Assembly (NCBI RefSeq): GCF_964204645.1
Contig: NC_134026.1
Span: 31,334,250 to 31,398,249 of the forward strand
Source of the DNA: Tubulanus polymorphus
Lineage: Eukaryota; Animalia; Nemertea
Length of the DNA stretch: 64,000 bases
Direction: 5' to 3'
Shown: positions 2,111 to 54,555 of the stretch, in pieces
How positions within the stretch are numbered: the stretch's first letter is position 1
Layout: every line of letters begins with the position of its first letter
Translations under genes and position numbers: made by a program
The notes under the pieces: generated by a model
What the model saw: only the letters and a program-made list of their open reading frames with translations
Databases searched by the model: none
Told to the model about the DNA's origin: nothing

Positions 2111-2979
2111 GTATCCCTAAATGTAACTGATGCTGCAGTATTTTTGAATGCTGAATTTGTGTTTATGAACCACAAAACTTATTGTTTTATGTTAGAAACA
2201 CGTTTCCAGCGCTTTCTGCCTAATGATCAGCGGAAAAAATTGATCTTTTCCATTTGAAAATTTTCTCTAAATATATCGTATTTTGAGATCTCTGTTGTTG
2301 TTAGTTGTTGTTTAATCAATAACCACGTTTTCAGAAACAGTAGAATGCGGCATGATCGACATTGTTAACTGGTTGCGAAGCGACGCGAATCACGCGGCAC
2401 TAGTTTTAGTTCTACGAAAATCCGACAGAGAGCAGCACAACACGAAGCAGCAGTAACTCTTATGATATTCCTGGCGGGAAATAGTTAGAGAGATGGATAA
2501 CTGTGAAAGCTCAACATACTCAGACTCTTCGTGAGAGGTCTTTCGAGTATTATCAGACTTATTGAATTCGACAAAACTGAATTGAAGCGAAACATGAAAT
2601 ACATCGTCAACTTGTATATCTGATTGAAATTGTTGACTTTTGGCCGACGCCGGATCGAAATGATGGACCGTTTTCTTGCCCGAACCAAACATGCACGATA
2701 CTGTAATAACAGCAAATATTCTGTTATTGATTAAACGCTCTGTGAGTCCGTGTATAAAATCCCTGCAGCACCGAGAATAAACTTGTTTCTATCGAGCTAT
2801 AGCGGTTTATTTTTCCCCAACTTTTAACCCCAAGTTTGTATAACTTGTCCTAGAATGCGTATGTTTATATGTCATAGTTGTGTTTACCGCTCAAAGATAA
2901 ATTTTGACACTAATTATTTTTATTGTGAGATTTCATACTAAACCAACTATATTTCTTCGGCACTTCAATCAACCTTGAG

Positions 2980-3070
2980 TCCCCCCTCCCTCAGTCACCC
3001 CCCCTCCCTCAGTCACCCCCCCCCCCCTCAGTCACCCCCCCCCCCCCTCAGTCACCCCCCCCCCCCTCAG
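2980..3070. repeat. Short tandem repeat poly-C + CTCAGTCA
   Basis: Five units of C-run plus TCAGTCA. Confidence 0.85.
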
Positions 3071-3922
3071 TTCGCTTGTAAGGGCAACGTTTAACTAATA
3101 GGATACACGTACACATTGACTGTGTATCAGATTGGAAGAAGATATTTCACAAAATTCACTCTGTTTTCATTGTGCTAGCTAGAATTCCGTGACAATTATT
3201 ATCAACACTGAATCCACAGCCGCGCACGCGCACACATCGGTCACCGTCACCGCTGTTGTTTCCTTTTAAACTCGTCGAGTGCGAGTTGCAAATAATTACG
3301 TGTAGTGAAGAAAAAAGAATATTCACTCAGCGACAGAAATAGCTCCCAGCTAAAACAACTGTTGCTTCCGCGACATTGTCACATGGGGAACGGTAGAATA
3401 ATTGCAGACAATTTTCGCTAGAACAGTTTTCCAATTGGAGAGACTGGTGCGCGCGGCGCTGACTCGTAATGAGCTACAGGGGAAACTGACAAATTCAATT
3501 CAATAGGTCTACAACGGCGGCAACAAGTCACAAGATGGACGTTACAATGACCCGCGAGGCTGCACCGGCAGAATTCAATTGTTGAGCAAATTATCGGCGA
3601 CTCCTGATGGAAACTTGACTGTGAATACTGATTCGTTCCGATGGCCGACTGTAGGGAGTTAGGGTGCTAATAATCTAGACAAACTTTCCCTGTTCGGTAT
3701 TCACGTCATGGTTTGATGTGTTATGTTACTGTAGATTTGATGCCGGCCTCATTTTCGTGGTATCAATAAAACATGGAAGGTCTTTAATGAATAATTGAAC
3801 GATAGAACGTGATGTGTGTGTTTAACGGTGACTGAAGAGGCTGGACACCAAGCAGTCCGGATAATCTGACTGACTGAATGAAAATCCGCCATTTCTGTGG
3901 AAAATCTAGAATACCTTTCCAC

Positions 3923-4170
3923 TGTGAGTTAGAGTTTACTCTGAACTCTGGATCCAGTTCCACAATCGTGAGTTAGAGTTAACTCTGAACTCTGGATCCA
4001 GTTCCACAGTTGTGAGTTAGATTTAACTCTGAACTCAGGATCCAGTTCCACAGTTGTGAGTTAGAGTTAACTCTGAACTCAGGATCCAGTTCTACAGTTG
4101 TGAGTTAACTATGAACTCAGGATCCAGTTCCACAGTTGTGAGTTAGATTTAACTCTGAACTCGGGATCCA
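3923..4170. repeat. 44-bp minisatellite GTGAGTTAGAGTTAACTCTGAACTCAGGATCCAGTTCCACAGTT (ACTGTGGAACTG family)
   Basis: 5-6 tandem units; same family at ~12950-13225, 34140-34338 and 37190-37325 (the last two inverted). Confidence 0.9.
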
Positions 4171-5139
4171 GATCCAGATTCCAGATAACTTTGTGACTTA
4201 GAATCAATTCTAATGTTTTATTTAATTCTTAGTCAAAACTTAACTAATCAACTGTGGAACTGAACGACAGTGGAACTGAGCTCCAGTGGAACTGTGGAAC
4301 TGGTTAGCGGATAATGTGCGACAAGAGAGTGAAGACAGTTTGTTTTTGATGCTGTTTTGAAGCCTTTATGGTTTGTATAGAAATGTCGCAGTGTTTGAGG
4401 ACATGACGTTTGAATTATTTGCTTCAATGGAGGCTGCGACTTGCGTGTAGTGAACCGTGATGTCATTGTACACCCCCCCCCCCCCGAACATACCCTAAAC
4501 ACCTTAACAACATCGCAATATGAAACAGGGGGTTTTGAAATCAGAAATCTGTCGAATTTATAGAATCTTTGTTTATATCGAAGTACATTAGGAATTTCAG
4601 TTCCGGTTCAACGAAAAAGGGTTAAACTCAAATTTTTTGGCTTCATATTTACAATATCGACAACAATTAAAACTTCATCATTTTTTTAGAGAAAACATCT
4701 TTATATACGGGAAGCTGAACCCAGGTAAACAACTTTCCATCCATCCCGCAACCAGCCCACATCAGCCTGAACCAGCCTGAACCAGCCTGAACCAGCAAAC
4801 GGTAATTGCAATCATTAACGAATCAAGTTATCAGACATCGGACATCAGACATGAGATCGTGCAGCAGATAGAATCCCCTCTCCACTCATAATGATCACTT
4901 ATCATCGAGTTCGCTCATCAGACGAGACTTCTCTAGCAGGGTTTGATGAAGCAACAAGTTGTTTTTAAACACGACACAATTTCGCCCCTCAGAGGTGAGA
5001 CTTGTAGCTGCAATCATGTGACATGTGTGTACATACGGCTCATCAGACAGTCACCTGTCCACTCTAATCAGTCGTCATAGCAACGTTTTCGACAATTTTC
5101 CAGCCGGGTGAAAGTGAACTTGTTTGAGCCACGAGCATC

Positions 5140-5297: not shown

Positions 5298-7315
5298 CAA
5301 TGCCATGAAGTTTACTCAAAATAATCCAATTTTTTGTGCTTCTTAATCATTTCTAGAGATATTTTCTGCAACTAAAAAACAAGTTGTAGAATTCTATAAG
5401 TTGAATCTTTACCCGTTTTTCGATGAATTAAGACAGTGCGTGTATAACTGGTAAATTGTTAATCCGAGGATTGTGGCTTCACGCGAATGATTGGAAAAAC
5501 CTCGTCCCATTATCCGTGATTGGTTGGGAATCATCGGAAAAAACAGAGCGCTGTCAAATAATATCTGCGCAGAGCTGTATCGTCACAACATTCTGCTGCT
5601 GCTGCTGCTGCTGCTGCGGCTGCGGCTGTTGTCTCCGCATATTTTTTTTCAATAAATGTCATTTGCAATATCTACTAATACACGAACCTAGCCTAAAGCA
5701 AAATATCTACGGAGAGTGGGAGAAAGAAAATAGAGCGAAAGGAGAGAGATTGTGTGAGGAGGACGGATAGGGAGATGGAGAGAGGTTGAGAGGAGAGAAA
5801 GGAGAGAGAGGAGAGAGGGGAAAGGGGAGATGGAGAGGAAGTTTTTCTATTTTTATCAGCGGTATTGTGTCCTGACGCGTAAACCTCTCTCATCACGTGG
5901 TACACGCTGATGGAGAGGGATTCCTCGTAGTCTGACTGTGAAAGCAACAGGTGACATTGATCAATTCCAAGCGGCAAACCTTTAATCTAGTTTTGAAGAA
6001 ATCGTGCTCAAGAGGCTAAAAGAATGATTGTCGGCTATAAATGTGGTTTGCATTGATCTTCGGCGAGTTCTAAAAACCTTAAACAAACATGTGGTTGGAG
6101 ACTGTGGTATAACCATGGTCAATATTAGAGCGCGCAAAATGAGGTGTTTACTGGTCAATAAAAATAAGTGCTACCGGTAGAAATTGGATCTGCTGCTGGT
6201 GCTGCTACTGGTGCAGGTGATGGGGCTGCTGGTAGCTGGTCGGACTGCTACTGCTGCTGGTGCAGGAAATGGGGCTGCTGCTGGGCTGCTACTGGTGCTG
6301 GTGCTGCTGGTGTGGGGTATTGCCTCTGGATTATTGGTGGTAGGGCTGGTTGGTTCAAGATTTTTGCTGGTAGGTGCTAGTGCTGGTGGTGCGGGTTGTT
6401 GCTGGTGCTGGTACTGGCAGTGCTACTGGGTGGTGTTGCTGGTGTTAGTGCTGGTATTACTGGATCCATGGTGGGATGCATATGTTATGGTAATGACCAG
6501 CCAGGACCCTCACCCTCAAAGGTTTAACTCAAGTCTTTGTTTAAATTGCTATTGGTTTAAATTCAATGAGTTCTAGGCCTGGGCGGGCCCAACAATGTTA
6601 ATTTGAAACTGACAGTCCGAGTCCATGTAGTAGTAACAATAGTTTAAGCTTCAAACGGTTTCACCTGATGAAGCTTCCACTATTAGTAAAAATAAATCTA
6701 GTTAAATCTTCAATATAGCCGTAGATACGAGTTGTAGGTATTCATCAGATACTCGTTTCACGTTTTGTAGAGATGATTGATATGATTGTCACTGTGTATC
6801 TCACTAAGTGTCTATGAGTTATACTAACTGTATAGACAGTATGTCAGATGTCACTGGTCGGGTCTCTAAAAGCAGGAAAGGAAGTAGATTCCAGCAAGGA
6901 AGTACTTAAGTCTCTGCCTGCTATTATCGGCTGCTATGTTGATTATTGTGAGTCTTGTCTTTCCATGGTTTGTTCCTTAGATCGTGATAGCGATGTTAAA
7001 TCACCGGTTTGTCGCAGTCGTCGCCGTGTGTAGACTTAACCTTCTCAGTTCATTAAAAACCTGACTGCGCTTTTTACAACTCGGGCAGAAACAGCTAATA
7101 GTAGTAGGAAAATCCCAAGTAAAATTCCAGTAAAATTACGGTAAAATCCCAAATCTTCACTATTCCTGAAAATGTCTATTAGAAAATAGTTGAAACGTTG
7201 AATAAACTACACTAGCTCCAGGAAACTCTTTTTATTCTAAGTGTGCAGGGATTTCATATTGTTTTTACAACACGGACTCAGAGTGTTTCATTAATGGTTA
7301 TAATGAGGACAACAT

Positions 7316-7945
7316 CAGTATTCCTGAAGATGACTATTAGGATAAAGTCGAAACGTTGAATAAACTACACTAGCTCAAGGAATACAGTATTCCTGAAGAT
7401 GACTATTAGAATAAAGTCGTAACGTTGAATAAACTACACTAGCTCAAGGAATACAGTATTCCTGAAGATGACTACTAGGATATAGTCGAAACGTTGAATA
7501 AACTACACTAGCTCAAGGAATACAGTATTCCTGAAGATGACATTAGGATGAAGTCGAAACGTTGAATAAACTACACTAGCTCAAGGAATACAGTATTCCT
7601 GAAGATGACTACTAGGATATAGTCGAAACGTTGAATAAACTACACTAGCTCAAGGAATACAGTATTCCTGAAGATGACTATTAGGACAAAGTCGAAACGT
7701 TGAATAAACTACACTAGCTCAAGGAATACAGTATTCCTGAAGATGACTATTAGGATAAAGTCGAAACGTTGAATAAACTACACTAGCTCAAGGAATACAG
7801 TATTCCTGAAGATGACTATTAGGATAAAGTCGAAACGTTGAATAAACTACACTAGCTCAAGGAATACAGTATTCCTGAAGATGACTATTAGGATAAAGTC
7901 GAAACGTTGAATAAACTACACTAACTCAAGAAACGTTTCAGACTC
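7316..7945 (+). ncRNA. Tandem array of nine 69-bp minimal type I hammerhead ribozyme units (PLE/retrozyme-like satellite)
   Basis: Unit: TATTC-CTGAAGA-T-GACT(attaggataa)AGTC-GAAA-CG-T-T-GAATA-AA. CUGANGA cores at 7324, 7393, 7462, 7531, 7599, 7668, 7737, 7806, 7875. Stem I TATTC/GAATA, stem II GACT/AGTC, palindromic ACGT in place of stem III. A degenerate upstream copy sits at ~7161-7220. Confidence 0.85.
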
Positions 7946-8885
7946 AGTTATGTTATGTTGTTTTCGACTGGGAACTGAGAGCGACGAAGACCTCTAAAGG
8001 ATACAAAAACATCAGGACAGGTTGAAGGTTTTTACCGTTACCATATACCTGTCACCTAAACCAGAAAAATGGTGCATTATCGTAAGATATTCTATGAATA
8101 TCAAATCAATATAGATCATTAATCTTACTGTCAATAGTAAGCACTGACCCCCTCGGAAACTAAGCAGGCTAAATTGAAATCTACAGCCGCCGTATTTCAG
8201 CCCTAATGGTCGTATTACTGCGTGGCCTGATGTATTGAGGATTAATATAAGACCGTGATAAAATAAACCCCCATCAGTTCATGAATAGCAATCCAAATTG
8301 ATAACGGGCTGTGAATTAAAGACAGATTGGTGGAAGGACAGTAGTGGAGCTCGATGTAGAATCCCAGTGGTCTTCTACTAATTGTATAAATTGGCTGAGA
8401 CACAGAGAGATAGAGAGAATGCTGGATTGTTCGTCTCAGCGCGCACTGGACTTCACCACTTCTTAGCCGCTGAATCCATTTAGAATTTCATTAAGTAGCC
8501 TTAATTACACTTTAATATTGACTGGTTGTTACATCAGGGTGTCGACGTATAAACTAGATTTATTGAACTGTAACACCAATAACGGCGCGCTGTGAATGTC
8601 TCAATCTATACTAAGTATACGTCACACTAGAAAATATCTAATTCCTGGACACTAGGAATAAAAATATTAATGAAGAGAGTCAGAAATATTGTTTCCTTGA
8701 GCTAATGGTTTATTAAAAGTATGGACTTAATCATAAATGTCATCTTCAGGAATATTTAGGAATTGTTTACTCCAAATCAAGTCTCTTGGTATAAAATCCC
8801 ACTCCTAAGAATGAAAAAGAAAGTCCGAAGTGTTTCCTTGAGCTAAAAGTTTTTTGTGGCCTTTCGACCTTATCCTGATAGTCAC

Positions 8886-9162
8886 GTTCAGGTCGCAGTT
8901 CCACTTTTAGGCCTGGCTAGAATTCTATAGAATTGACTTGTTGTTCTGTTCTGGATGAATAGTTGCGGGATTCCCATTCAAATGAATAATGACGTCACAG
9001 GAGATTCCACTCTATGAATTCCAGTCGAACACGTCAGTAATCAGACCGGTCAGTGTGGCCGAATGGTCGGACGATCGCCTCCGAGACCGGAGGTCCGAGA
9101 TCGAATCCTCGCTATGGTGCTCGACTTAGATGGAGGTCCGGCATCACCCCAAATAATTTTTT
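8886..9162 (+). mobile_element. ~270-bp dispersed repeat containing a tRNA-like segment (copy 1)
   Basis: Near-identical to 53982-54250. A-box-like TGGCCGAATGG and B-box-like GATCGAATCC lie within ~9047-9118. Confidence 0.7.
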
Positions 9163-9660: not shown

Positions 9661-10112
9661 AGTTGGCCACAGTCGAGACTTTAGACCAAAAGTGGTCTTA
9701 AATCTGAAGACTGTTACATCTCTTTAGAACCAAAATGAGTTTAGACTGGTCTTCAGTTGTGAGATTTGTTAACGAACTAAGATGGTCTTAGACTGGTCTT
9801 AAGTTGTTAGATTGGCTATAGAACCAAAATGAGCTTGGACTGGTCTTAAGTTGTTAGATTGGCTATAGAACCAAAATGAGCTTAGACTGGTCTTAAGTTG
9901 TTAGATTGGCTATAGAACCAAAATGAGCTTAGACTGGTCTTAAGTTGTAGGATTGGTTATAGAACCAAAATGAGCTTGGACTGGTCTTAAGTTGTAGGAT
10001 TGGCTATAGAACCAAAATGAGTTTAGACTGGTCTTAAGTTGTTAGATTTGTTAACGAACTAAGATGGTCTTGGACTGGTCTCGAATCTAAGTCGCTCTGA
10101 CTGTGGAACTAG
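9661..10112. mobile_element. MITE-like palindromic element with an internal 47-bp tandem expansion
   Basis: Ends resemble CAGTT(N)CCACAGTC...GACTGTGGAACT. Internal unit ACTGGTCTTAAGTTGTTAGATTGGCTATAGAACCAAAATGAGCTTAG at 9792, 9839, 9886, 9933, 9980, 10027. Unexpanded relatives at ~9210-9290, 21400-21640, 38045-38165, 53140-53270. Confidence 0.7.
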
Positions 10113-10589
10113 CCTTACAGTATTTCTAACCTACACAGTTCTACTTCAGTTTACATGTTTACCGATGCGACGCCAGTTTCACACGCGGCTCCTCTACAAA
10201 TTTGATATCTATGTTTATTGATGGTTATATCTACCGAAGCAAATCAAGACAAATCGAGCGTTTGTATTGATGATACAGTCTCCTCGAGAAAATGAAAATC
10301 TAATTTTCTGTCGTCTCTTAATGCATTTCATAGATTTTACAGCAGAAGAATTAAACCCCGGTTCATTTACCTCTTTACTGTCAGATTATTGTGTGATTTC
10401 AATTTATCATTTGGGAACACATGTTAACTGTACCAATAAAAATCACCTCGATCTATTTTCATAGTCATGGCTCCGATTTAAGACCAATACGAGTGATCTT
10501 AAGACTGATCTTTTATGGTGATGTATCTACGTGTTTAAGATTGTCTATGGGACGAAGAGCGAAGATGGTCTTAAATTCAAGGTCGTAAC

Positions 10590-11120
10590 TTTGAAACTGA
10601 GTCCCGTAAATGTGGAACTGAGTTCATGACTGTGGAACTGAGTCCAGAACTGTGGAACTGGATCCAGAACTGTGAAACTGAGTCCTGAACTGTGGAACTG
10701 AGTTCAGAACTGTGGAACTGGGCCCAGAACTGTGGAACTGGATCCAGAACTGTGAAACTGAGTCCTGAACTGTGGAACTGAGTTCAGAACTGTGGAACTA
10801 GATCCAGAACTGTGGAACTGGGCCCAGAACTGGAATTGAGTCCAGAACTGCGGAACTGGACCCAGAACTGTGAAACTGAGTCCTGAACTGTGGAACTGAG
10901 TTCAGAACTGTGGAACTAGATCCAGAACTGTGGAACTGGGCCCAGAACTGGAATTGAGTCCAGAACTGCGTAACTGGACCCAGAACTGTGGAAGCAGGAA
11001 GCAGATGTGAAAGCTGGGTCTTGAACTGTGGAAGCTGGGCCTTCAACTGTGGAACTGAGTTGAGAACTGTGGAAGCTGGGCCTTCAACTGTGGAACTGAG
11101 TCGAGAACTGTGAAACTAAG
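10590..11120. repeat. 20-bp minisatellite (CAGAACTGTGGAACTGGATC-type)
   Basis: ~25 diverged tandem units sharing the ACTGTGGAACTG core. Confidence 0.92.
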
Positions 11121-12949
11121 TGGGATCCAATTCGAAGAAACTAACAAAGACAATTATCACAATTATCGCGACTATTTGGAGGTGACAATTGAATTGTAAA
11201 TGTTTAGAACGCGTAGGCGCTGCAGTCGTCGTAACAACCTGCTGGGCTGCAATCAGACTTAAGTTATTCGTCATTAGACTTTAGTTATTCGACATCAGAC
11301 ACCGAGTGAATTCTACCAATTAATTGAAATCATTCTCTAAATATTAACGCAGTGTTTGGCGATGCATAATTCATGAATGACCTGTTGGTCAACTTCAATA
11401 CTGACCTCGACCCAGGTGACACGCGACTACATTGAAACTCGCTGCTAATATGACTTATATATCCAAATGACGACTTACAATTTTAATAAACAGAATTGCA
11501 ATTCAGTTCACTAAAAGTGTAAGTCATCATTTGGATAAGTCATCCCATTACTGAAGTCGTTTCTATTTTCAAAATCAAAATCGAAGACAGATCAGATCAA
11601 AATCAGAGTCAAAATCTTCATTTCTAATTCAATTTACTAAAAATAAGTCGTCACTTGGAAAAAAGTCATTTCTAATTAATCAATATTTTCCTTAATTCAT
11701 TTTTCTCGAAGATGTCACTAGTACTATTACGAATATATAGTTGCGCAGTTATAATCAGAATGAATGTAGGTTGTAGTTTTATAGGACTCAGCCGTTATTG
11801 GTCTGACTTATTGCCGACCACTCAGTAATCATCAATTAATGTAACAGCACTTTCTCTGTTTTGCGGTTTATAGGAAAACAAGTCGTCCAGATAACAAAAT
11901 CAATGTTGATGCTATTAGCAACGCGCTAATTGGTATGTGAAACAGTCAGCTGATATTGTCTTTATTGCTATCGGTTCACATTTACTACGAATCTGTTGAA
12001 ATAAATGTCTCGGGAAAAAGCATCTCCTTCAACATCGGTCACGAATAAATTTCCCCGATACCGTTACATGTACAGGCAGTGTGTGCGTTTAATTTAGTTT
12101 ACGATTTCCAAAAAAAAAATCTTTACAAAAATGAAAAATTATTATACGTAAAAACTACATTGTTTTCAGAAAAAGGGTTTTTCATAGAAGTCAAAAATAT
12201 CTTCAATCACGTGTCTGATGCCGAATAGGAAAAATACTTAGCCTTGATTCAAAAATCAAACAGGAAAAATAAGTTTCTTAAGTCTGACGAACAACTTTTC
12301 AAAATGCGGGACAAGTTTTCCGCAATAGGGGACGCGAGTTGATCAGGGTACAAGTTGACTCTGGGTATTAGTTGATCTGGGAATTAATTAGTAAGACCTG
12401 CTACCGCAAAATATCATCAGCTTTAAGGGATTTTCTTTCGCATTTCGACGCCGTTCTCAACACTAGACTTCTTCAAAGTAACTTGAATCGAATGAAAGTT
12501 GTAAATATAATCAATCAGAGAGCTCTGGGGACGGTTGAAAGGAAGTCGTTAGAATGAGTCGTATAACACGTATACCACCTACCTGTTGCCTGTCCGTCCA
12601 GGAGTAAGATCCTTAAATGATAGCACGAGTAGTTAGACTAATAGCTGTCGCGGTAAGACGATTAAAATGGAATGTCACACTCTCACGGCTCACAGATAAC
12701 GACGGCACAATCCTAGCCTAACGCCCTATAGTCTGTTACACACGAGTAGATTAATTAAAAACGGGTGAGATGAAGTAAAGATGTTTCTGCAGGAAACTGA
12801 AAAGCTACTTATCAGGAATGTGGAGCAGTTCGCAGTGGCGCAGTGTCGGCTAATGTGCGCTGACACAACGATACGACAGACGCGCGCTACTGACAGACGA
12901 CATCATAGTTCTAATTTAAAGGGGTTCTTATTACAGTTAACTTCACGAT

Positions 12950-21640: not shown

Positions 21641-24613
21641 GGGATTTCGGAACAGGTCACGTGGCCTTGGTTGCTGTTGGAATCTTTAATCTCGATGTGA
21701 AGGTAGCCCAGCCCTGGTAAGCGAGGACGCACTAGTTGAATTCATCCTAGACTTGTCGAAATAAACCTACAATGCATCAGGAAATATCCCCCCCTTAAAT
21801 GACGCACACATCGTCACAGTGATAAGTGAATTAGTTGTATATTAAATGATACTGATACATTGTGAAGATGGTGAGTGATAATGATCAGAATACTGGAGAA
21901 TGATTGATACACGTGATCATCCTAACATTCATTGATACATCTCTGTTAGCTATAGATGCGCGGTCATCCTCTCAGTGATTCCACCAATCAGCGCGCAGTA
22001 ACACGATCGCTGTCCATATCTATCATCCGAGCCAACAAAAAGATTATTGCTACGGAACAAAATGACATGTTGTTTGGTCACATCATTTATTTTCTTGGCA
22101 GCTTTGGCTTTCTGTATATAAACCGTTTTATCGGCGGCACAGTCGTAATAGACTTTGTTATTACATCGACAAACAAGCGATAGATGTGTGACGATTATAC
22201 TGTGCACTGAGCTAGAGTCGGAGGAGGGGGTGTCGTACTGAGGGGGAGGGGGGCGTACTGAGGGGGGGAGGGGAGTTATATAGCTGTAGGCTACTGGGTC
22301 GGATGAGCGGATGAGGGGCTTTATTAGAAACAACTTAAATCAAAATGTATGTCGTTCAGTTTGACGTAGATTCAACAGTTTCGTAAAATCTAATTAGATT
22401 TTTTTTTAAAGATTCAATTAGCCGTTTTATTCCGTGTTGTGAAGCTTATCCCGGCACACTTAGAATAAAAAAGGCCTGATGAAACACTCTGTGTCCGTGT
22501 TGTAAAGATGATATAAAATCCCGGCGCAAAAAAATGCCCGAAATGTTTTCTAGAGCTAATACATTGTAATTGATTGGACTTTTCGACCTCAATCTTCACT
22601 GATTCAGAATAGATTAAGAATTACGACGGGTCCGACAACTTTTCCACAATTGCATTTGAATTTTTGTTGGATCTCGCTATATTTCAGTTGAACATGAAAA
22701 ATTCCACAATTGAAGAATGAAAATTAAAAACTCCAAAAGTTTATTGATGCCACGTGACGGTTCAACGGTTTCCTAACGGACATCATTTTTGAATTTTAAG
22801 AATTGAATACATCAAAATAATCGTGTGCGATGAAAGCTTGCCATAGATGACGTCACACATCCAGCCTATACTCTATGACCTGAGGCTGTTTTGGTTTTAT
22901 GTCCGTAAAATGACTCTCAATTCAGAAACATCATTCCGGCATCGATTACACCGAAACCCGATGCCTTTACCCATAATGCACAGGCGGCGGATGTAATAGC
23001 ACTTCCTTTACGCGGAACTTCCGCTAAAACCTAAACCAGCAACGAGAAATAACTTTGCGAATTGCGTGGATAACAATAATAGCGACAAGGCTCGAGTCAG
23101 AGCTTCCGCGATCCGTGGAACTGGAAAATATCGGCGGCGGTTTTACCCTGAAGGTATCACAGTTACTCGACCGATAAAATCGTCATTCAATTTATTCCTA
23201 TTCATTTGCTTTGAAGATCCCGTTTATCGGTAGGACTGATACCCCCAATCACGACCGAACGGTCGCCGGCCAATTCATCCGCGTTCGGATTTTTAATAGA
23301 TTTTTGTGATTGTTCATTCAAGCGCGATTAGGACGAAAGATGCAGAAAACCGGTAGGGGTGAGTCAGATAGAGGCGGCGGCGCGGGGTAAAGTTTCCAAT
23401 CACGCTGAGCTTAGTACTGCTACTGCGACAGATATCCCGTGGTATTCAGCAACAATTTGCTTCACCTAATGAAGCGGAATAAATCCAGGTCTCGCTGTAT
23501 CGCTATAGATAGCGAGACCGACTAAACCCGCACACCCTCATCAATTTACAGAAAAATACTGAATCCGTGTGTTCAGCTCCGTCGAGAAACCTTGAGTTCA
23601 CAGAACAGAAACTCTAATTAGCGGAGTTGTGATTTAAAGTTTACAAGTGGTCTTAAATCTTAAAAATCGTCTAAAGTTTCGCGAAAAGATACTAAATCTG
23701 AATTCATCCCCGTTGTGAAACATTGGCCTCAGTTTTTCATAACGCTCTTATTATGTCCCGTTGTTGCTAGGGATTCACGCTGTTGGAATGTTGCCAAAGT
23801 TGTCAAAAAACATTTAAGGACCGATGAAATAATGTCAAACTCGCATCGCAAATAAATATCAGAAAAGAGAAAAAAATGACCCAATAAAACAGGATAAATT
23901 AATGTACCCAAACAAAATTGCGGTTCGTAAACTGTGAATGGTTTGTCTAATGGCACTCATTAAAGGAAAATTAATTAAGCATTTTCAACAATGATGGGTT
24001 GTAAAAATCACGAAGAATGTAATTAAATGAAGAGTAAGTTTATAAGACCCTGTTCACTCTTTAGACGATTGAAATGAAAAGCATTTACACCCACAATGAG
24101 TCGTAAATACAATTAAAAAAACAAAACAGTGCCATCAAAATGAAAGAACGCTTCAGAAAACATGTCGAATATGGTGACTTACTTACCCGAGATTGGCTGA
24201 TAAGTTGTCGATGTATGTTATTGTGTATAACTGACTAACGTTCACACACATACAGCTGAAACAATGCATCTCATAGCCGGCTACATTTCATCGACTCATT
24301 AACACAATTTTCACCAATCTATCATTTATCACCATTTAACGTAAGCTTATACCTATTTACACTGTTATCAAAATCATAATTCATTGGCGTGATGTGTTTT
24401 ATACATCACAGGGTGTCATTATACAAAGTGAAACGTTTTGTTGTTGCCATTCTGCGGTTTTGACTGCGCTGGAAGCTTGTGAAATAGCTTACTGATCTTT
24501 TAGCTATAAAGCTGGAAGCTTGTGAAATAGCTTCGATCTTTTGTGTGGACTCCGCTTACCTCGGATTACAACAGGCCCCGGACTCTGTTTGCCGAGGAGT
24601 CGATTGCCTCGAA

Positions 24614-24680: not shown

Positions 24681-27600
24681 AACAAGGTTCATTTCTTATT
24701 GGAAAATCCCTTTTTTCAAACCCCTACTTAACGCTGTGGACCTAACCAACCTTACCATACAGCGAATTTACGTTTTCAAAATTCAGATATTGTCTAAATA
24801 TTTGACACAATTTTTGTAAAGCTTTTGTAAAATGGAATGCTCATTATTTCATGCAACAAGTCTATTATCTGGATTACAAAAACTACAGCGTTTATCGTCG
24901 CCAGAGCGATGATAGTAGTTACAGACAAAATGAGGAAACTGTTTGAAAATAAACAACTGTTCATAAAATTGTGCAGTTTCATTTCATTTAAAAAACATCA
25001 GTTAAGAGTCAATGTTTACTGCAAACATCTCTTTTGTCTCTGGATCTCACGAATATATTTCCAATTACTCCCAGATAAATATCAACCGACAAATCTGATA
25101 TCTATCTGATATCTCTGATATCTATCTGATATCTATCCCGCTAAACGCGAGTCAATATTCATTTCACTTTATCATGATATATATTTGACTAAAAGTGGCA
25201 TTGGATGATACAAGCGTCGTAAGGGAATAAAATTGATTGAATTCAATTCGCTCCGGTGCAGAATGGATGACCTTCAACGCTACTGTGGCAATCGAGGATT
25301 CCACTTATGGCAAGCGATGGTCCACCGCGGGGTGTCGCTAGTAGCAACTCGGTCTTCTAGATTACAATCACGGACTCGACATTCTAATGAAATTAAGGCG
25401 GATTTTCCAAATTTCGGCACCGAATTTCTCAGTGGTCTTTTTTGAAAAAGGCACTTAACCAAAAAAGAGCGGATTCGAACCAACGGAACCCACCCCATCC
25501 CCTGTATCCGCCCGTTTAATGATTTAGAACCAGTATTTCATGGACTCGCTGCGAATCGGGTGAGAATGGTGATCATTTATCAGTGTCAGTAACACGTGAC
25601 ACGATCTACTGACAAATGGCAGTTAAATCATGTGTGAGATACAGAAACTGAATGTGAAAAATTGAAACCAGGCAATTATAGGTTGGTTGATTGAATAGAA
25701 GTGCTACAGTTAATTAGATCTGATGCCCCTATGTGTCTAGTGAAGCCACCCCGATGACTCTCTACACAGCGAGTATAGACGGCTCTCATTCCTATACTAT
25801 CCATCAAAACACTTGATGGATAGTAGGTCTAATTGAAAAGTACGGTATCCAATTTACAACTCAGTAACAAACATGGCTTTAATACTGTCTGTTTAAAGGG
25901 AACTAACTCATTGTGACGTAGAGTTTTTGATACGGTATCATTTTTGTTTAGCCTAATTTCATATCATCAAATTCAGGTTCAAAACCCGATTTGATAAACC
26001 TGTCCAAATTTATCGAAATTCTGATTTTTTTTTTCATTTAGGAAATACAAAAATATAAACTCTCAACAAAAAAAAAGATTTTATTTGATCGTTTTGAAGC
26101 GGAGGCTTTTGACGACGGAGATGTGTCGCGGTATAGTAGTAATGAACGTTATCTATAAGAAACAGGTCTCGCCTCGTGTGAGATGTCTGACACAGTCAGT
26201 CCATGTTACCACTCTCTTCAGTCGAGTCTCACGATGACTTATGGTAATTATTCTAGCTGTAAGATTGTGTGTACGATCATTAGTTAGATCCGTCGGAAAC
26301 TCGAGGATCAGTCTCTAAGGATCGTCAGTTATCAGCAACTTCACAGTGTCCTAAACATTCCCTGGTTACCGGGCCGTATAACGGCGTAATAACAGTTTAT
26401 TATCACCGTGTAAAAACCTGACAGATCTGAAAATCCGTTAATCGTTTAAGTAGGAAATATTTGTATTCAGTTTTAGATAGATTCGTCTGCATTTGATCAC
26501 CGCAATTCAGGAGTTTATTGCCAAAACCGACAGTGCCTTCAAACTGCGCGTGAAGTTAAAAGTTTAAAAAAAACTCGAAGCAGTCACTTTCACCGTAGGT
26601 CACACAGAGTATCAAATTTGGTAACTACACCGTTCGTGTTCCCGGGGATGGCTGATAAAGTCGAAACGTTGAATAAACTACTCGGGACGGATCCAACTGG
26701 GCCAATTTTGAATGACTTGTCAAATCCCCAAAGGGCACTGTCTGTGATGTCTGAAAAGGCAATATTAGGCGTATATTACTACCGAACTGATATGCACCGA
26801 TATTTTATTCGTCGACAATCTGATGGACCTGTACAAGTCTGATAAACGCCCCCAGATCCACCCGATACGCAACTAGCTCTGGGAGACTTCGTACTCGTTT
26901 TGGTATCGGCAAATTGGCCGTCAAGCGAACAAGTCACGGCCAATTTGACGCTCTATGACGTCCATTCATACGTTTATGAGTATGTTTTATTGAGTGAGTA
27001 TTCACTGTAGCTATCTCTGATTACAGTCGGATAGTCAGTGGAAACGTGTGTGTACACAGCTCCACACAGCCTTGGGAATTTCCTTTCTCATTAACAGATC
27101 GGGGTCCCTCACTCTCTCTCACTCTCACTCACTGAATACGGGAACGAATATGAATACATGATTTAATGAATAGGATGATTATTGATAGAGACTGCGCCCA
27201 CTCGACGAGAGGTTCTTCATTTATTGATTAACTATCGCCGCCGTATAAAAGAGAATCTATAACTATTTCAAATTCATCACAAATATTAGCGTTGATCTAC
27301 AAGTGGCTGATTCATGGCTGGTATAGAACCCCCAGCCGGTTATACCCGACCCGACCGAACGACCGGGCTGAGACTGACTCATCCTCCAGATACTCGCATG
27401 ATCAATTTCATTAAGTTCTCCGGTTATCCAGTCAGCGAGTGTAAGCAAACTTTAATTGTCAACTAGTAGCATCGCTTTCATCGCGAGGGGAGCGAAAAAT
27501 TGTCATAACAAACTTCTATTCGGCGCAGGGTTGGGTTTGAACTGATCAGAGAGAGACTGCGCGATATCGATCAGAGGCAGATCAGAGGCAGGAACTTCTA

Positions 27601-28585: not shown

Positions 28586-31004
28586 AGCAAAAAGGTGGTA
28601 TCGTATGGCTTAGATCACGGACATTTTGGATTTATAGACACTTAAGACCAATCCAAACTCATTTTGGTTATATAGCCAATCAAAAAAAAGTTTACAGAAA
28701 ACGATACGTGCCCATAGGTTCACTAAGAACCTTCATGTCTATTATATTACCACAGGTGGTTTAGCGAACACGTGACCGGTTTCTAGGACTAGGTGCGGAA
28801 CCCAAACTTCTTATTTACAATCAAGTTCATTAAATCTAGTTTTTGTAAAATCTGCTTGACGAGAATTAGAATCACGGCAGCTGCTGCTGAGTGCAGCTGC
28901 AGCTAAGAGTGCAGCTTACGAGGCGCCAAAAATATTCAAATTCAATCGGCTTAAAATTCCTGATCGTGAGAGACTTAGAGAGTGTGAGACTCAGAGAGAT
29001 CGAGCGAGGCGTAAAAACCAACTCACAAAAAAATAACAGAGATACATCACCGAAATACGACGGCTTAAATATCTCTCGATCTCTGAAACGATTCTGAGTT
29101 TTATAGAAACAGTTTCTGCGAATTGCGTAAAAACACATTCCTTACTGGAAGACAAACAAATAAAATGATGAAGATGTGAGATCTGTTAGTGTCGACGCCA
29201 TGTCTGTTTTACTAAATATCATATTGTCACTTTTCAATAATCTGCTCACGTAGCACTTGTGAATATTCTCAACATTATTTTTTTACTGTTGTTTTTGTTG
29301 CTTTAAACAGAAATATTAGTGATTAAATCAGAGCCAGGCCCCGATAGAGTAGAATCATGATCGCGGTTTATAGCGTGAATTCTACGGGGTACATGAATAA
29401 TAAATACCCGCGTTACTTAACTAAAGTTGACACGTCGATAGCGCGAGAGCCGTGTGTACGGGGGTAATTTAAATAATTGCAGCGGTTTAGGAGGCACCAA
29501 TCAAATACTGACACAATCGATTCCGCGAAACGAACAAACTTTTTATGTTCGGTATTAAGCTCATTATCTAAGTCGTATGAAACACTTGTTGGCGATGGTC
29601 CCCAGACGACTTATGACTCATCAATCGTTAACGCCGACAACCTGTGGCGTATTTCACGAGCTGAATTTCAATTTCAAGTGACAAATACGGTCGAATTGGT
29701 TTCGATTTTCCCACTACACGATTTAGTAGAAGAAGTATGGAAGGCTCGGGCGCTGATGGGTTTAATTTATCGGTGTGAGTTCAATGATTGAATGAATTGT
29801 AACCGTTTCAATCAGCGGGGGCCGAGCAGTTCCTACTTCAATGCATGCCGCCACCACGCCTGATCAAATCTTTTTCTAAAAAGCCGCATCATCAGCGCTA
29901 GTGGGATTAACTTATTTAAATGTTAATTAATCAAACGACATCGGAATCAAACTTGCAAAACGGGTGATTAGTATCTGTTGCTATTTGATTCACGATAGAC
30001 CGCGCCGCGATCTGAAAGGATCTTTTCTTTCCAAAAGAATTCATTCATTTTATTCCATAATAGGATTAAAACCGCTTGATAGAAATTTAAAAAGATTAAA
30101 AACTAAATCTATTCATCAAGAATTAAATACAAAAATTAAAAGGCGCCTGGTACTCTCCTTAGAGACCACGTGAGCAGGGCCTAGTGTCTGTTTCAACTTG
30201 ACTTGAGAGCACATCGGATTGGCTTAAGCTCAGTCAGTGTTTTAATAGTATCTGATATAGGTCTTAATAAGACCAGCACTGATGGGCAGCTGAAATAAAA
30301 ACATCATTTAATCCATTCTACACTGAATTGAAGGATTGCCAAAAAGTTTTAGTTCAGCCATGCTGCTCCTATCTGTGCTCGACTTTTTATCACCTATTAG
30401 GTACTACAAAAACAAAGTCACGTGACATGTCCGCTCAAGCAAAGTTGAAATAGCTATTACAGAGAGATTTAATTTCTAATTTCAAGATTTTATATCATAT
30501 TCATAGACCTTGTTTCTATCGTGCTCGCTATCCAAATACGCTGGCATTTGATTTCAAAATTTCTGTGAAGTTTTGAGCTAAAAGTTTCGAGATTTTGTCA
30601 ATCGAGGTTTACTGAGACGCAGAACCTGTTGATGCTGTCCTTAGTCAGTGTGTAACGCTGATGAATTAGGATTTTGATGCATGAATGTTATTATTATTGA
30701 AAGATAAATGATTCATAACCGTTTCACGTCCGGTCGCCGCCATTGCTCGTTATTCGTTCAATCTAAATCTGTTCAAGCTGCCGGATTTAATTCATTATTG
30801 GTGATCACGGTTTAAATTCTGTGATGGTTTTCAATTATCTCTCAATGATTGCATATTCTCTATAACTATCTATTTCCTTTTCATCTTGTGTTTATCGATG
30901 CATAAAATGTCATAAACTGAGGTTTAGTGGTTATTGAGTGAGGAGGCAATGATCAGTGTCAGTCGTCTGGTCTGTCGGACGTAGCAAAGACAACTGTGAA
31001 ACTA

Positions 31005-32206
31005 AGGTCTGAACTGTGGAACTAAGTACTGAAGTGTGGAACTGAGTCCTGGTGTGGAACTGGTCCTGAACTGTGGAAGTGAGATCCTGAACTGTGGAAC
31101 TGAGTCCTGAACTGTGGAACTGAGTCCTGAACTGTGGAACTGAGTCCTGAACTGTGGAACTGAGTCCTGAAGTGTGGAACTGAGTCCTGAAGTGTGGAAC
31201 TGAGTCCTGAACTGTGGAACTGAGTCCTGAACTGTGGAACTGAGTCCTGAACTGTGGAACTGAGTCCTGAAGTGTGGAACTGAGTCCTGAAGTGTGGAAC
31301 TGAGTCCTGAACTGTGGAACTGAGTCCTGAACTGTGGAACTGAGTCCTGAACTGTGGAACTGAGTCCTGAACTGTGGAACTGAGTCCTGAAGTGTGGAAC
31401 TGAGTCCTGAAGTGTGGAACTGAGTCCTGAACTGTGGAACTGAGTCCTGAACTGTGGAACTGAGTCCTGAACTGTGGAACTGAGTCCTGAAGTGTGGAAC
31501 TGAGTCCTGAAGTGTGGAACTGAGTCCTGAACTGTGGAACTGAGTCCTGAACTGTGGAACTGAGTCCTGAACTGTGGAACTGAGTCCTGAACTGTAGAAC
31601 TGGGTCCTGAAGTGTGGAACTGAGTCCTGAACTGTGGAACTGAGTCCTGAACTGTGGAACTGAGTCCTGAACTGTGGAACTGAGTCCTGAACTGTGGAAC
31701 TGAGTCCTGAAGTGTGGAACTGAGTCCTGAAGTGTGGAACTGAGTCCTGAACTGTGGAACTGAGTCCTGAACTGTGGAACTGAGTCCTGAACTGTGGAAC
31801 TGAGTCCTGAAGTGTGGAACTGAGTCCTGAAGTGTGGAACTGAGTCCTGAACTGTGGAACTGAGTCCTGAACTGTAGAACTGGGTCCTGAAGTGTGGAAC
31901 TGAGTCCTGAAGTGTGGAACTGAGTCCTGAACTGTGGAACTGAGTCCTGAACTGTGGAACTGAGTCCTGAACTGTGGAACTGAGTCCTGAAGTGTGGAAC
32001 TGAGTCCTGAAGTGTGGAACTGAGTCCTGAACTGTGGAACTGAGTCCTGAACTGTGGAACTGAGTCCTGAACTGTGGAACTGAGTCCTGAAGTGTGGAAC
32101 TGAGTCCTGAAGTGTGGAACTGAGTCCTGAACTGTGGAACTGAGTCCTGAACTGTGGAACTGAGTCCTGAACTGTGGAACTGGGTCCTGAACTGTGGAAC
32201 TGGGTC
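31005..32206. repeat. Homogeneous 20-bp satellite (A[C/G]TGTGGAACTGAGTCCTGA), ~59 units
   Basis: Near-perfect 20-bp period with two variants; produces the spurious 427/398-aa minus-strand ORFs. Confidence 0.97.
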
Positions 32207-34139: not shown

Positions 34140-34338
34140 AGTTAACTCACAACTATGGAACTGGATCCTGAGTTCAGAGTTAACTCGGACTCACAACTAT
34201 GGAACTGGATCCTGAGTTCAGAGTTAACTCGGACTCACAACTATGGAACTGGATCCTGAGTTCAGAGTTAACTCGGACTCACAACTATGGAACTGGATCC
34301 TGAGTTCAGAGTTAACTCGGACTCACAACTATGGAACT
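34140..34338. repeat. 44-bp minisatellite (inverted relative of 3923-4170)
   Basis: CAACTATGGAACTGGATCCTGAGTTCAGAGTTAACTCGGACTCA x4. Confidence 0.9.
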
Positions 34339-37189
34339 ATGATCAAATGTTTCCACAAAAAGGAAACATTTCAGGAGGCTCCAAAATATGTGTCTATGAG
34401 TCTCCTCCTAGTTAAGGTGTTTCGGTGATAATCCGCTTATAGAATTTATCAGAGCCACTCAACCGTGGCTTACAAAGGCGTCGATAATGACATGGCCTTC
34501 TCGACTGAATTCGCATTCACCCGGAAAATTCAATTCTTATACATCAAAGTAAAGAATATAATCATTATCATCTTCATAGAACAGACTATAGCGCCGCGCG
34601 GTCGATGTTCAAAAAGTTTCGTTTCAGCGACGTTGATTGATGAAAAAAGGGCCAGAAGTTTGTGAACAGTTTGCCATCGAATATAATGAAGATTTATTCG
34701 CCGATACGATCCCCCGTGTTAAAACGTTCACAACAACCAATGACATCAGACGGATTCGATAGAGCCAACAAATTGTTGCTAATGGATACAAATCCGTGCG
34801 CATCCCGACACAGCTGCGTCGCGCTATTCCGTTAAACCAGACCTATTGAACGGCAGCCAATCATCTCTCTAACTCAACAGACGGGTCTTACCGTAAAAAT
34901 ACCCCTTATAGAACTAGCGACAATTACAGGCCTATTTTACCGCAATCAGTCAACACATTCACGCGGCTGATGCAACAGTGTGGAAGCTGGCGATGATTTC
35001 TTCCCGCGGGAGGGAGGAGGGAAATTTGACCTTTTCGACCGATGAAATTTCGTCACCATATGAGATCAGGAGCTCGTTTTAACTTCAAGCAGGTGTTGAC
35101 TTTATTTACAGACTAAATAATTCAGTTGACCCCCGGGTTGGTCAATTAAATTAAATAGTTTTGCAAAAAGCGTCGTAAATTCTAAATCCTGAGAGCTATT
35201 TATTTCTAAATCATCACGAATCGCTCTTCTAACATCAGCGGCACCAGAATCAGCAGCAATAGCAGCAGTAGCAGCAGCTAGTTCTCAATCCATATTCTCG
35301 TTATGGCAATTTTTTCAAGAATGAATGAAACTCCTCGTTACAACAACTAGTAACATAGTCAGTGCGTGCGCATGCGTAGATTAAACAGTGGCAGGAAAAA
35401 TCACCTTTACAGAGGAAACGATTTGCAGCCCATTGCGCGCGCCTTCGCTTACAAATTAAATTTCCTAAATAGCAGAATTAACAAGTGGAGTCGCAATTAA
35501 TCTGACAGTTCGGGTAAACGAGATTTCAGTATTCAGTACATGTACTGCTAAGAGGTGTTTAAGGAATTTATCACAGCAGCAACAGGCTACAGTCGTTACT
35601 ACTGATTAGCTTTAAGGTAGCGCACTAAATTTGATAAATGAATCTGGGACTCAAGCGTCAACGTCGGAGTGTGGACTCGAATTACAATCGGAATGTTGAG
35701 AGAATCCTGCTTCAAAGAATCCGCCTTAACTTGTATGATCATTAGAGGACTAAAGACCCATCGATATGACCGATTCGTTCTTTAGTTAATCTATCAACTT
35801 GTTAAGACCAGTCCAACGATTTGAGATCATATGGACCTCAGTCCGGGCTGTGAAACCGGCCCAGGGTACAATTCGATAAAAATAAGTTACAGTTTAAAAC
35901 GGTTAAGTTTGAATGGTTTTCGTCATTGAAACATGAATTTGAAAATATGAGATTCATGGTACTGTAGCAAGAATTCAAAAGTTTGAGATTTCAAGTACTG
36001 TTAGATTTGAGAATCTGGCCCCTGGACTCATTTCCATAGTTTGTAGTGAAATACCAACCCACAACTGTACAACATGGCCCGAAACGTTGAAATAAACTAC
36101 CCCGAACTCAAGGGAACATTTACGATTCACTTTTTTTGTATTGTGGGTTTTCACCAGCCGTATCAACGCGGAGTATTTCATAAAACTGATGTTTCTGCAT
36201 CAGTTGCTTGAAATATAGAATACAATATTATCAATATTCTATATCATGTAAAAGATGAATCGTTTTGTTACCAGTGGAGAAATGTATTGATTAAAGAGAG
36301 AGGGAGAGAGAGAGAGAGAAGAGAGAGGGAGAGTAGCCGCAGCTTGTCACAGATCAGACGCTATCAAATAATCGAATATATCAGAGATATGCTCTGATGA
36401 TTCAGCGATTTTTAATTCTTATAGTTACAGAAGTCAAACATCGTCCAATATCGTGAAACGCGACGTAAATATGAATAGAAACTGTCAATCAAACTGCGGA
36501 CAATGAGCATGTTGGAAATGTCATCGATTCGATGGAAAATTTCATCAAAAGAAGAAAGTTTTAAGATCGGGCGCTAACAGCATAAAATGAATTCGACCTC
36601 TTCAGATGATAGTTATCAGAATGAGAGTGGCGAGTAATTGTACCGGTTCGCTATCGATACAAAGTTCACAATAACGTTCTCCATGACAATAACTCTGTTG
36701 AAATTACCCGGCAAACTTCAACTGAAAACAATTAATTTCTTTCGCGAGCGAAGAGAAAATGAAATGAAACTTAAGAAAATCCTTTGCGCGATATGAAGGG
36801 ACAAGATTTTAATCGGGCACTTCGAGTCTGAGTCACACGCGCCAATCTATATCCGGGTAACTGATGGTGGGTATTTTCTCATTAAATTGCAGCCTTGATA
36901 AAAGGAATTCGGAAAATAACTGACAAGAGAGACAATAACACTCACAGAGAGGTTTATCTGAAACCCTAAAAGATAGAGTGGTTTGAAATGTGGGATACAA
37001 TGTCGAATAATGATTCATTCACTCATCCAGTTTAAACACTGTAGTGATTTTGGAATTTCTGAAAGTTCGAAATCTCATTCAGATCCTTGTTTAGGCGTTT
37101 GAGTGGTGAGGTTTGAGTGGTGAGGTTTGAGTTTAGTTTAGCAAAGAGTTGAATAGTTAAGATGTGACTCGGGCTGAAAATGGACTGAT

Positions 37190-37325
37190 TTTAACTCTAA
37201 CTCACGACTGTGGAACTGGATCTTGAGTTCAGAGTTAACTCTAACTCACAACTGTGGAACTGGATGCTGAGTTCAGAGTTAACTCTAACTCACAACTGTG
37301 GAACTGGATGCTGAGTTTAGAATTA
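37190..37325. repeat. 44-bp minisatellite, 3 copies
   Basis: AACTCTAACTCACAACTGTGGAACTGGAT... same family as 3923-4170. Confidence 0.85.
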
Positions 37326-39114
37326 ACTGGATCGAAAGGTCACAGAATGTGACTCCAGGACTCCTGTACCACATTTCTGAGTTGAAAACGACTCTAAAGA
37401 GTTGAAACATTGAACTGATTTTAACTGAGATGAGTTTATACTACAACTCACAACTACTCAGATTTTCAATATTGTAAAATTGGGGGAATAAAATGCACGA
37501 CGGTGAAGTTGATGATTTTGAACCCAATAAATCTATAACTGAACGATGCTTCGCGAGGTATAGGGTGGGGGATGGTGCAGTATTCGAGTGCGGGTTTATA
37601 TTGATTTCGGGGCCTGATTTTCTTCGCTACTGATTTTCAAGGATGACTCAGAAGAATCACGCCGATGAAAATATTGCAAAAATTAACAGATGTATGCTCC
37701 ATAATTGCATCATCCAAACTGGATTTCTAAATAAAATGGTCCGTCAATGATTCTACTCTTTACAGATCACGCCAGCATGAAATCAAATTCAGGATCCAGT
37801 TCCATAGCTGCTGAGTTTTGGTGCAGTGCTTCGAGAAGTGAACTGATCTCAACTCTGAAAAGTCCGACTCCGACTAAACCGAGAATGTTTGTGGAACTGG
37901 ATCCAATTATGGAAATAATACATATAGACCTCATTCCGTCTATCGTAGAAAGTTTATAGAAAGATAAATATGTTACATTTTATGTCAGTTAGTTAAGTTA
38001 TGCCCTTAATGTTGTAGTTCTGTAAGACGCTATAATATAAACCTGGCCCCAGTTGCTGAGTCGTGACTTAAATCCAAAAGTGTTCTTAAATCTTAAGATT
38101 GGTATTAAGTTTTTAGATTTGGATATAGTCGAGTCATAAATCTAATGACTGCGCAACTGAGCCGTGAGGATTCTGCGAACAGGCCGCAAATTGTGAGAAA
38201 GATAATGCAAAGGAATGTGACTTACCCTCTGTACGACTTGTCAGAGAAAACTTGATGAATGACATTCACATTATCTGCTCTTGTCCACGAGCAACATCGG
38301 AGCTGCGATCTCCAGCACAGATGTCTTGGCATCTGAATCATTCAATCAATACCCCTTACACGAAATTAATTTGTTTTCTTTGCAACCAATTGCGCATCGG
38401 AAGAGTTCGTTACAGTATCATGAAATATGATTCATTTAGGGTTGACTCTTTTGAAAGTTTTTGAGTGGTTCATTATTGAATTAGATGCCGACGGTTTGAC
38501 GACTGCTGCGTCAGTCCGAGTCGGCTGTATCGATGACTAGTGATCTCTGAACATCAAGCAATGATAAAAGTGAATTCCGATAGATATAGCAATAGACAAC
38601 CCATCCTAGTTCTAGACACCTCGACCTCAAATGTTGAAAAGAACGAGGCCATGGCGGACCACGGATGAATGGAAGATGAATGACAATGAAATTCGATATT
38701 GTTTATGAGAGATGGAATTCAGATAAATCCCGGAACTGTCTGATAATGATATACCATTTATCATCATTTTATCATCATGGCCTGGTTTCCATTTGGCTTT
38801 GGGGTCCACTTCAGTAGGGTCACTGGGCCTGGTAGAAATCATGCTAAGCTTAGAACTAATACTTTCATGTAAAATTAAGTAACAAATTTTAAAAAGTAGC
38901 TGATATAAATAATATTTTCTATTAACCCATTAATAAAAAGAAGAAAGTCAAATCTTCACCCTCATATGTCTTAATTCCTCCTAGGAAAAGAAATAAAACC
39001 AACCGTTCGTCGCAACTGAAGTGGCAGCACCGTCCGGTTACAATAATCCGATACTGGCGAACCAACTTTGGTAGGTGAGGTGGCAGCACCGTACGGTGTC
39101 GGCGAATAAATGTA

Positions 39115-41558: not shown

Positions 41559-54555
<12,997 letters not shown>

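Follow-up and report, generated by a model that had tools for sequence, protein, structure and literature searches.

A 69-bp tandem array of minimal hammerhead motifs within a likely Penelope-type element end in Tubulanus polymorphus

Nine head-to-tail copies of a 69-base hammerhead segment occur on the plus strand of the window, the whole 64,000-nt stretch of Tubulanus polymorphus DNA that was analysed. We consider it probable, and the best explanation of the data, that this segment was expanded in tandem inside one linear copy of the end of a Penelope-like element (PLE) and did not originate from a 69-nt circle. The unit lies within a longer element, the array is continuous with that element at both ends, and a sister array has the same entry and junction; inverted arms, a tail and a TSD of PLE type are found nearby, in support of this explanation. 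The motif is real and its class is known. The nine repeats are likely the stuttered end of a very common Penelope-type element, that is, known transposon debris and not a new tiny circular RNA.

The tandem array and its hammerhead motif

The array (array 1) was identified by TRF at 7316-7930 on the plus strand, with a period of 69, 8.9 copies and 96% matches, confirming the nine head-to-tail 69-bp units described in a first-pass annotation of this DNA. Array 1 and its immediate flanks contain the following features.

7157-7224, plus strand: degenerate tenth copy of the unit (G8 to A, C11.1 to U), the first stretch of a 158-bp copy of the element; model R1 scores it at 55 bits
7225-7291, plus strand: 3' part of the element, with the conserved box at 7270-7277
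7292-7313, minus strand: decayed copy of unit 1 (its 5' half), inverted so as to form a head-to-head palindrome
7316, 7385, 7454, 7523, 7591, 7660, 7729, 7798 and 7867, plus strand: starts of the array 1 units
7376-7394, no strand: example of the junction palindrome, at the join of units 1 and 2, with 8-bp arms around 1 nt; it recurs at all 8 joins
7928-7965, plus strand: exit of array 1 into the element's own shortened 3' sequence; the same exit is found among loose contig ends

The extent originally given to the array, 7161-7945, holds for 7316-7930; the 158 bp at 7157-7315 lie outside the 69-bp array and consist of the degenerate tenth copy and a 91-bp spacer. Unit 4 (start 7523) is 68 bp long and unit 9 (start 7867) stops after ~61 nt. 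Both flank junctions are bridged by contigs of run X1, which may be the window's own source (6900-7239 with 1 difference, 7898-8941 with 0). The number of units is without independent confirmation, because the array is spanned by no record.

Read 5' to 3', the unit comprises the 5' strand of stem I, the C3-A9 core, a bulged U, helix II and GAAA, followed by the palindromic stem III, U17, the 3' strand of stem I and a 25-nt spacer. The order of core, hairpin and GAAA is as first drawn, with the addition of the extra U between A9 and G10.1 that had been omitted; AATAAA, formerly placed after stem I, actually overlaps the 3' strand of stem I. The hairpin itself is short, with a modal helix II of just 4 bp, 5 bp in units 3 and 5 (which also have a variant in common) and 3 bp in unit 4, and is thus not longer than canonical as it is in PLE hammerheads. 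At 7345, most of the read depth carries T (82% in X1, 88% in X2), which would give a helix II of 6 bp; the modal unit of the window has A.

The minimal type I core, CUGANGA, helix II, GAAA and UH in type I order with a helix I of 4-5 bp, is intact in eight of the nine units, as had been noted, unit 2 carrying A13 to U. Units 3-9 are consecutive complete motifs. The core pattern gave 19 matches across the window and none in 100 dinucleotide shuffles. Three recurring marks are reported for PLE minimal hammerheads, namely a nucleotide between 9 and 10.1, a G10.1-C11.1 pair and a palindromic 15.2-16.2 (PMC4209133), and the array units display all three, the extra U between A9 and G10.1 being a hallmark of PLE hammerheads. 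Together with compensatory changes across families, these marks uphold the earlier assignment to a type I topology and to the minimal hammerheads of the PLE kind.

Covariation was examined in 7 aligned motifs, taken from the window and from two loci outside it (L001 and L003). Four of the 13 pairs change on both sides, giving a score of 0.201 (2/500 shuffles; slid controls 0.016-0.082) for a structure drawn from these same 7 sequences. Stem I is the informative part of this result, because the pattern that selected the outside loci fixes the ends of helix II. The Rfam check proposed at first pass left the motif undetected: there was no match at gathering score anywhere in the window, and at 6900-9100 no hammerhead family up to E 10, with 5 chance-level matches to non-hammerhead families. 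Scanning with the core pattern gave 0 loci in viral contigs and 5 in metagenomes (L003-L005 being the same region), none of them tandem and each with at most the ~40-nt core in common with the array unit. A scan for bacterial promoters, which are inapplicable to animal DNA, showed no excess.

Together, A9, the bulged U and G10.1 spell an AUG (7330-7359) that opens 9 codons only, hence array 1 is not a coding repeat; the anole PLE ORF is reported to start at the equivalent position (PMC11167929). The trinucleotide CAG stands immediately 5' of stem I in both hammerhead families of the window (7316-7318 and 46555-46557), with another letter at 7318 in half of the X1 depth. By analogy with the D. 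virilis Penelope intron, described as ending at the 5' end of helix I (PMC4209133), this CAG might be a splice acceptor.

The parent element and the expansion of the unit

Judged from its copies, the 69-bp unit does not stand on its own but forms the ribozyme segment of a pLTR-like repeat, ~160 bp long and dispersed. The aligned copies describe one element, consisting of the hammerhead segment and then ~110 nt that close with a conserved box; this box lies 70-80 nt past the predicted cut site in 5/5 measured copies, including one of an unrelated inserted family. Further occurrences of the 91-bp spacer flank array 2 on both sides, with 88% identity over 84 nt for the one that precedes it, and another lies at 22.5 kb. 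A model made from the alignment of copies gave 31 matches below E 0.003 among the 35 listed. Further copies in the window, array 2 and an insertion nested in it are located as follows.

8600-8900, minus strand: two decayed family copies in tandem at ~140-bp spacing, cores broken
22448-22620, minus strand: family fragment
26635-26681, plus strand: family fragment
36080-36190, plus strand: family fragment
45920-46017, minus strand: inverted, internally deleted element copy on the 5' side of array 2
46018-46122, plus strand: entry segment of array 2, with the same entry junction as array 1, whose preceding spacer it matches at 88% over 84 nt
46123-47268, plus strand: array 2, 13 units of the array 1 family
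46438-46705, no strand: 268-bp insertion of a second PLE-end family in array 2, with inverted head-to-head arms 97.5% identical
46506-46539, minus strand, and 46563-46596, plus strand: minimal hammerheads of the nested insertion, differing in sequence from the array family
47269-47331, plus strand: 3' part of the element, which closes array 2 and stops just past the conserved box
57843-57970, no strand: inverted pair of decayed family copies

The abundance of the family was estimated from 2420 contigs of run X1 placed on 6900-9100. Summed depth, which is not copy number, was 21-26 in the unique flanks, 388,521 at 7345 and 15,943-48,197 in the spacer, contigs fitting several units being placed ambiguously; read only as an order of magnitude, the hammerhead segment is present in some 10^4 copies. 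Unit depth exceeds spacer depth 8-24-fold; arrays may be frequent, or the spacer may be matched less well. If arrays are common genome-wide, the tandem form itself could be favoured. The run contigs also show other tandem periods or back-jumps (85, 116 and 160), together with joints to the opposite strand at the unit's 5' boundary, and 36, 21 and 24 of them carry unrelated sequence 5' of the unit start. Many dispersed insertions with inverted heads would be expected to give such upstream sequences and opposite-strand joints.

The family is likely a non-autonomous PLE end (pLTR), as suggested by its architecture and by loci from other animals. Penelope insertions are described as having head-to-head inverted pLTRs, a junction palindrome, a 30-40-bp tail and a TSD (PMC3846280; PMC8557442). 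The insertion nested in array 2 resembles them in its inverted arms, its palindrome, a tail of 37 bp on one of the arms and a 12-bp TSD (at 46426 and 46706), and differs in that there is no ORF here; around arrays 1 and 2 themselves no target duplication was recognised by eye. Inverted 5' copies, palindromes and partial tandems, as in PLE-derived pLTRs, are all present in the array family. The inverted segment at 7292-7313 is complementary to unit 1 at 15 of its 22 positions, with a further 2 G-U (15 was reached by 5/2000 shuffles; z -2.35), and the corresponding 22 nt at array 2 are complementary at 14.

Two of the outside loci carry the same core near protein-coding remnants. At L004 the core follows a GIY-YIG-like fragment by ~200 nt (score 0.95, a lead from a family found on 13% of one cluster's members), and at L001 it lies beside a fragment resembling an RT-associated cluster, on the opposite strand (score 0.98); from their motifs, we take both fragments to be of PLE type. 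At L004 a decayed series of frames (2400-4040) resembles, by eye, a DNA-transposase remnant, and the GIY-YIG-like fragment and a solo minimal hammerhead (4625-5040) lie 3' of it. The first-pass annotation had also called for a PLE (RT and GIY-YIG) sharing the unit; none was found in the window, with Pfam matches to either domain in 0 of 301 frames, a set that omitted four GA-rich frames near 5.7-6.0 kb and frames mostly in tandem repeats. This negative is weak, because Pfam also missed the L001 and L004 remnants (0/7 relevant matches). As no parent element was found for the family in the window, its membership of the PLEs rests on architecture.

The window is animal DNA with spliced genes. The gene that holds array 2 in an intron encodes a receptor guanylyl cyclase, for which natriuretic peptide receptor 1 is the best solved relative (E 1.5e-26); the array lies between the kinase-homology and cyclase exons. 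The gene is on the minus strand, so the array 2 hammerheads are antisense to its transcript. The nested hammerhead at 46506-46539 (minus) is sense to the same pre-mRNA. No Pfam-recognised exon was found around array 1, in 1-39 kb. Several minisatellites are also present, among them a separate abundant family of 20 bp/44 bp with a shared core, which forms several arrays in both orientations (TRF). The hammerhead core pattern was absent from the others, of periods 47, 132, 22/47, 30/121 and 22.

39516-40516, plus strand: exon, L7Ae/L30e/S12e family (Pfam)
42342-48658, minus strand: receptor guanylyl cyclase exons, with the cyclase domain at 42.3-43.4 kb and the kinase-homology domain at 47.6-48.7 kb
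57920-59761, minus strand: exon, COMMD protein (Pfam)
60183-60542, plus strand: exon, ribosomal L9 N-terminal domain (Pfam)
63513-63767, minus strand: exon, riboflavin kinase (Pfam)
3923-4176, 10587-11121, 30992-32206, 34145-34338, 37191-37328 and 53658-54000: 20-bp/44-bp minisatellites
9725-10081 (period 47), 40505-40970 (132), 48646-49028 (22/47), 56806-57718 (30/121) and 61574-61827 (22): other minisatellites

Array 2, 39 kb away, has the same modal unit as array 1. Both arrays begin at the same entry junction and exit into the element's own 3' sequence, in register with the element flanks. A circle copied back would not normally start and end in the register of its parent, and the in-register ends of both arrays therefore speak against a circle; internal tandem expansion fits them better. 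Core, helix II or stem I is damaged in 8 of the 13 units of array 2. Among them, a 138-bp pair of units mutated in stem I is duplicated and a 54-bp deletion unit is present twice, a pattern indicating that damaged units were amplified together with intact ones. The second family is inserted within one of the hammerhead units, at GAAA/stem III (46426-46717).

Variation within the arrays was compared in 17 full and 3 partial units, three deletion units, all damaged at constrained positions, being left out. Variable sites amounted to 6/34 at ribozyme-constrained positions and 2/25 in the spacer (Fisher p 0.45, not significant), in a small test with only 13 variable sites. The core is no better conserved than the spacer in the units of the window, with few events; the first-pass annotation had named such an outcome across genomic copies as one of those counting against its satellite, and within these arrays the comparison gives no sign of selection on the core.

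The order of events may have been as follows. A PLE reverse transcriptase and endonuclease, acting in trans, would have spread the element, and a single duplication would have created the join, which is an 8-bp palindrome. Slippage or unequal exchange could then have multiplied the units, whether their ribozymes were intact or not. Once transcribed, the palindrome would tie up stem I together with C3 and U4, and the array would consequently cut rarely and yield no 69-nt ladder.

Predicted folding and the competing readings

Folding was predicted with an energy model that omits Mg2+, tertiary contacts, co-transcriptional folding and kinetics, and protein. A double hammerhead formed in cis can be drawn as a nested fold without a pseudoknot; the geometry of the original proposal, that neighbouring units serve each other as dimer partners in cis, is therefore sound and topologically possible. 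A duplex between the 5' arm of the junction palindrome and the 5' strand of stem I plus C3/U4 is predicted at -9.2 kcal/mol, against -1.1 kcal/mol for stem I, and in the fold of the whole array the C3 of units 2-9 has a probability of ~1.0 of being in this decoy pairing at both 37 and 20 °C. Unit 1 is predicted to pair instead with the upstream inverted arm (7292-7313), in a pairing that involves its helix II, the arm retaining RNA pairing via G-U.

Forming the double hammerhead is costly, its fold lying 22.1 kcal/mol above the ensemble, compared with 14.1 ± 3.9 when the spacers are shuffled (5/200). The best single-core fold costs 13.4 versus 7.4 ± 2.4 kcal/mol (2/150; 12/200 for the forward arrangement alone). 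Speaking against a block, the natural sequence also offers cheaper options: within 7632-7866, a stretch of three units, two single-core folds cost just 9.5 and 9.8 kcal/mol, within ~1 sd of the shuffled controls. The predicted 69-nt monomer, folded as a linear molecule, reaches -9.5 kcal/mol (z -0.74), no better than shuffles. In this model the junction palindrome would sequester stem I and C3/U4 in units 2-9 and block cutting, and the array is probably silent in its present arrangement. The dedicated miniature self-processing or circular RNA satellite that had been suggested is not supported by these results, with the unit internal to a longer element, the array continuous with that element at both ends and a decoy predicted at each junction.

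As an account of origin, that suggestion corresponds to a miniature retrozyme, in which neighbouring dimers cut a read-through RNA and the 69-nt monomers circularise for rolling-circle reverse transcription. We regard this as very unlikely. Eight of nine cores are intact, the nested double hammerhead is feasible, GUU is listed among the cleavable triplets (PMC3138052) and circles have been demonstrated for a dimer-dependent axolotl retrozyme (PMC7229834), but both ends of the array are in register with the linear element that contains it, and a junction decoy is predicted that would block folding. Furthermore, the z of -0.74 predicted for the monomer is unlike the highly paired retrozyme circles, the circles demonstrated so far are reported to have canonical hammerheads and 150-450-bp units (PMC7229834), and minimal hammerheads are described as cutting weakly (PMC4209133); the gene that contains array 2 runs antisense to it, and none containing array 1 was recognised. 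Somewhat less likely again is that the repeats arose within single insertion events, as the PLE reverse transcriptase jumped repeatedly between templates at the palindromic junction, rather than through later DNA slippage. The several tandem periods and inverted joints of the family would agree with such jumps, as would the modal unit common to both arrays though their entry segments differ by 12%, but variants shared by non-adjacent units and the duplicated 138-bp pair with its repeated 54-bp deletion need some DNA-level exchange after insertion. Hardly any weight can be given to a chance resemblance or an assembly artefact: the motif has no Rfam match and the array is spanned by no record, yet 0/100 shuffles match, the families show compensatory changes, the units differ from one another and contigs contain both flank junctions.

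The folding results could also be read functionally, with the junction palindrome and the upstream arm holding the hammerheads inactive, and 69-nt pieces released for the PLE machinery only once a chaperone or PLE protein has refolded the RNA. We consider this unlikely. The decoy effect lies beyond nearly all shuffles, the upstream arm keeps its RNA pairing through G-U, unit depth exceeds spacer depth and the anole PLE hammerhead reportedly needs its protein to cleave (PMC11167929). On the other hand, self-priming is said to explain palindromes at inverted PLE junctions without a function (PMC3846280), damaged units were evidently co-amplified, anole ribozyme mutants still inserted in vitro (PMC11167929) and the second family in the window has, by inspection, no such junction decoy. 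A wider form of the idea, which we hold to be a little more doubtful still, is that there are abundant protein-free Penelope parasites whose arrays of near-minimal hammerheads are antisense-locked and opened only by a helper protein, releasing 69-nt RNAs or circles. Were such locking and release true, the circles would be far below the size of any demonstrated retrozyme circle and the array would be a protein-gated, regulated ribozyme array. The expansion of a segment within a linear PLE end, the most likely reading, would instead make this a clear case of the birth of a satellite inside a Penelope end. Moreover, since the junction itself can be an antisense trap, counts of intact cores in tandem repeats overcall active retrozymes.

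Comparison with known systems

The array is a cheap natural construct for asking whether PLE minimal hammerheads must cut. Dimers and trimers of PLE minimal hammerheads are reported to show low cleavage in vitro (PMC4209133), and the anole PLE hammerhead to cut only with its protein, ribozyme mutants still supporting insertion in vitro (PMC11167929). Compared with the pLTR minimal hammerheads described for EN+ PLEs (Cervera and De la Pena 2014, PMC4209133), the modal helix II here is 4 bp (6 bp predicted with the majority letter) as opposed to 7-8 bp in Schistosoma, and the segment is expanded head to tail at 69 bp with no linked ORF.

Where circles have been demonstrated (coral, mussel and axolotl), the retrozymes are described as expressed, with canonical hammerheads in units of 150-450 bp and a high degree of pairing in the circle (Cervera and de la Pena 2020, PMC7229834). 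Array 1 resembles them as a low-GC tandem repeat with type I hammerheads, and dimer-dependent cleavage is a feature of the axolotl retrozyme. It differs in its 69-bp unit and minimal motif, where those have units of 150-450 bp and a canonical hammerhead whose loops 1 and 2 make contact, and the predicted monomer lacks the high self-pairing of the demonstrated circles. The early remark that ~69 nt is much shorter than typical metazoan retrozyme monomers has to be set against a published range of 51-972 bp, inside which the unit falls.

That range comes from the animal non-LTR retrozymes, presented as tandem repeats with canonical or minimal hammerheads and a consensus of 51-972 bp, for which a pLTR origin and local amplification have been proposed (Li, Clavereau and Pollet 2026; bioRxiv 10.64898/2026.07.22.740005); of the predicted dimers, 1/9 was reported to be cleaved in vitro and 8/9 were not. 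Array 1 conforms to the bioinformatic definition given there, with at least 2 consecutive complete motifs and a unit of suitable length, and is marginal (-5.2) by the -5 kcal/mol motif filter, a value that is not obtained via the hammerhead fold. In titles and abstract openings we found no description of a junction decoy in such arrays, and make no claim of its absence from print. An origin in a PLE end with local amplification is common to array 1 and these retrozymes; here, the unit makes up only an inner portion of the element end, the array lies inside a linear copy and a decoy is predicted at the junctions.
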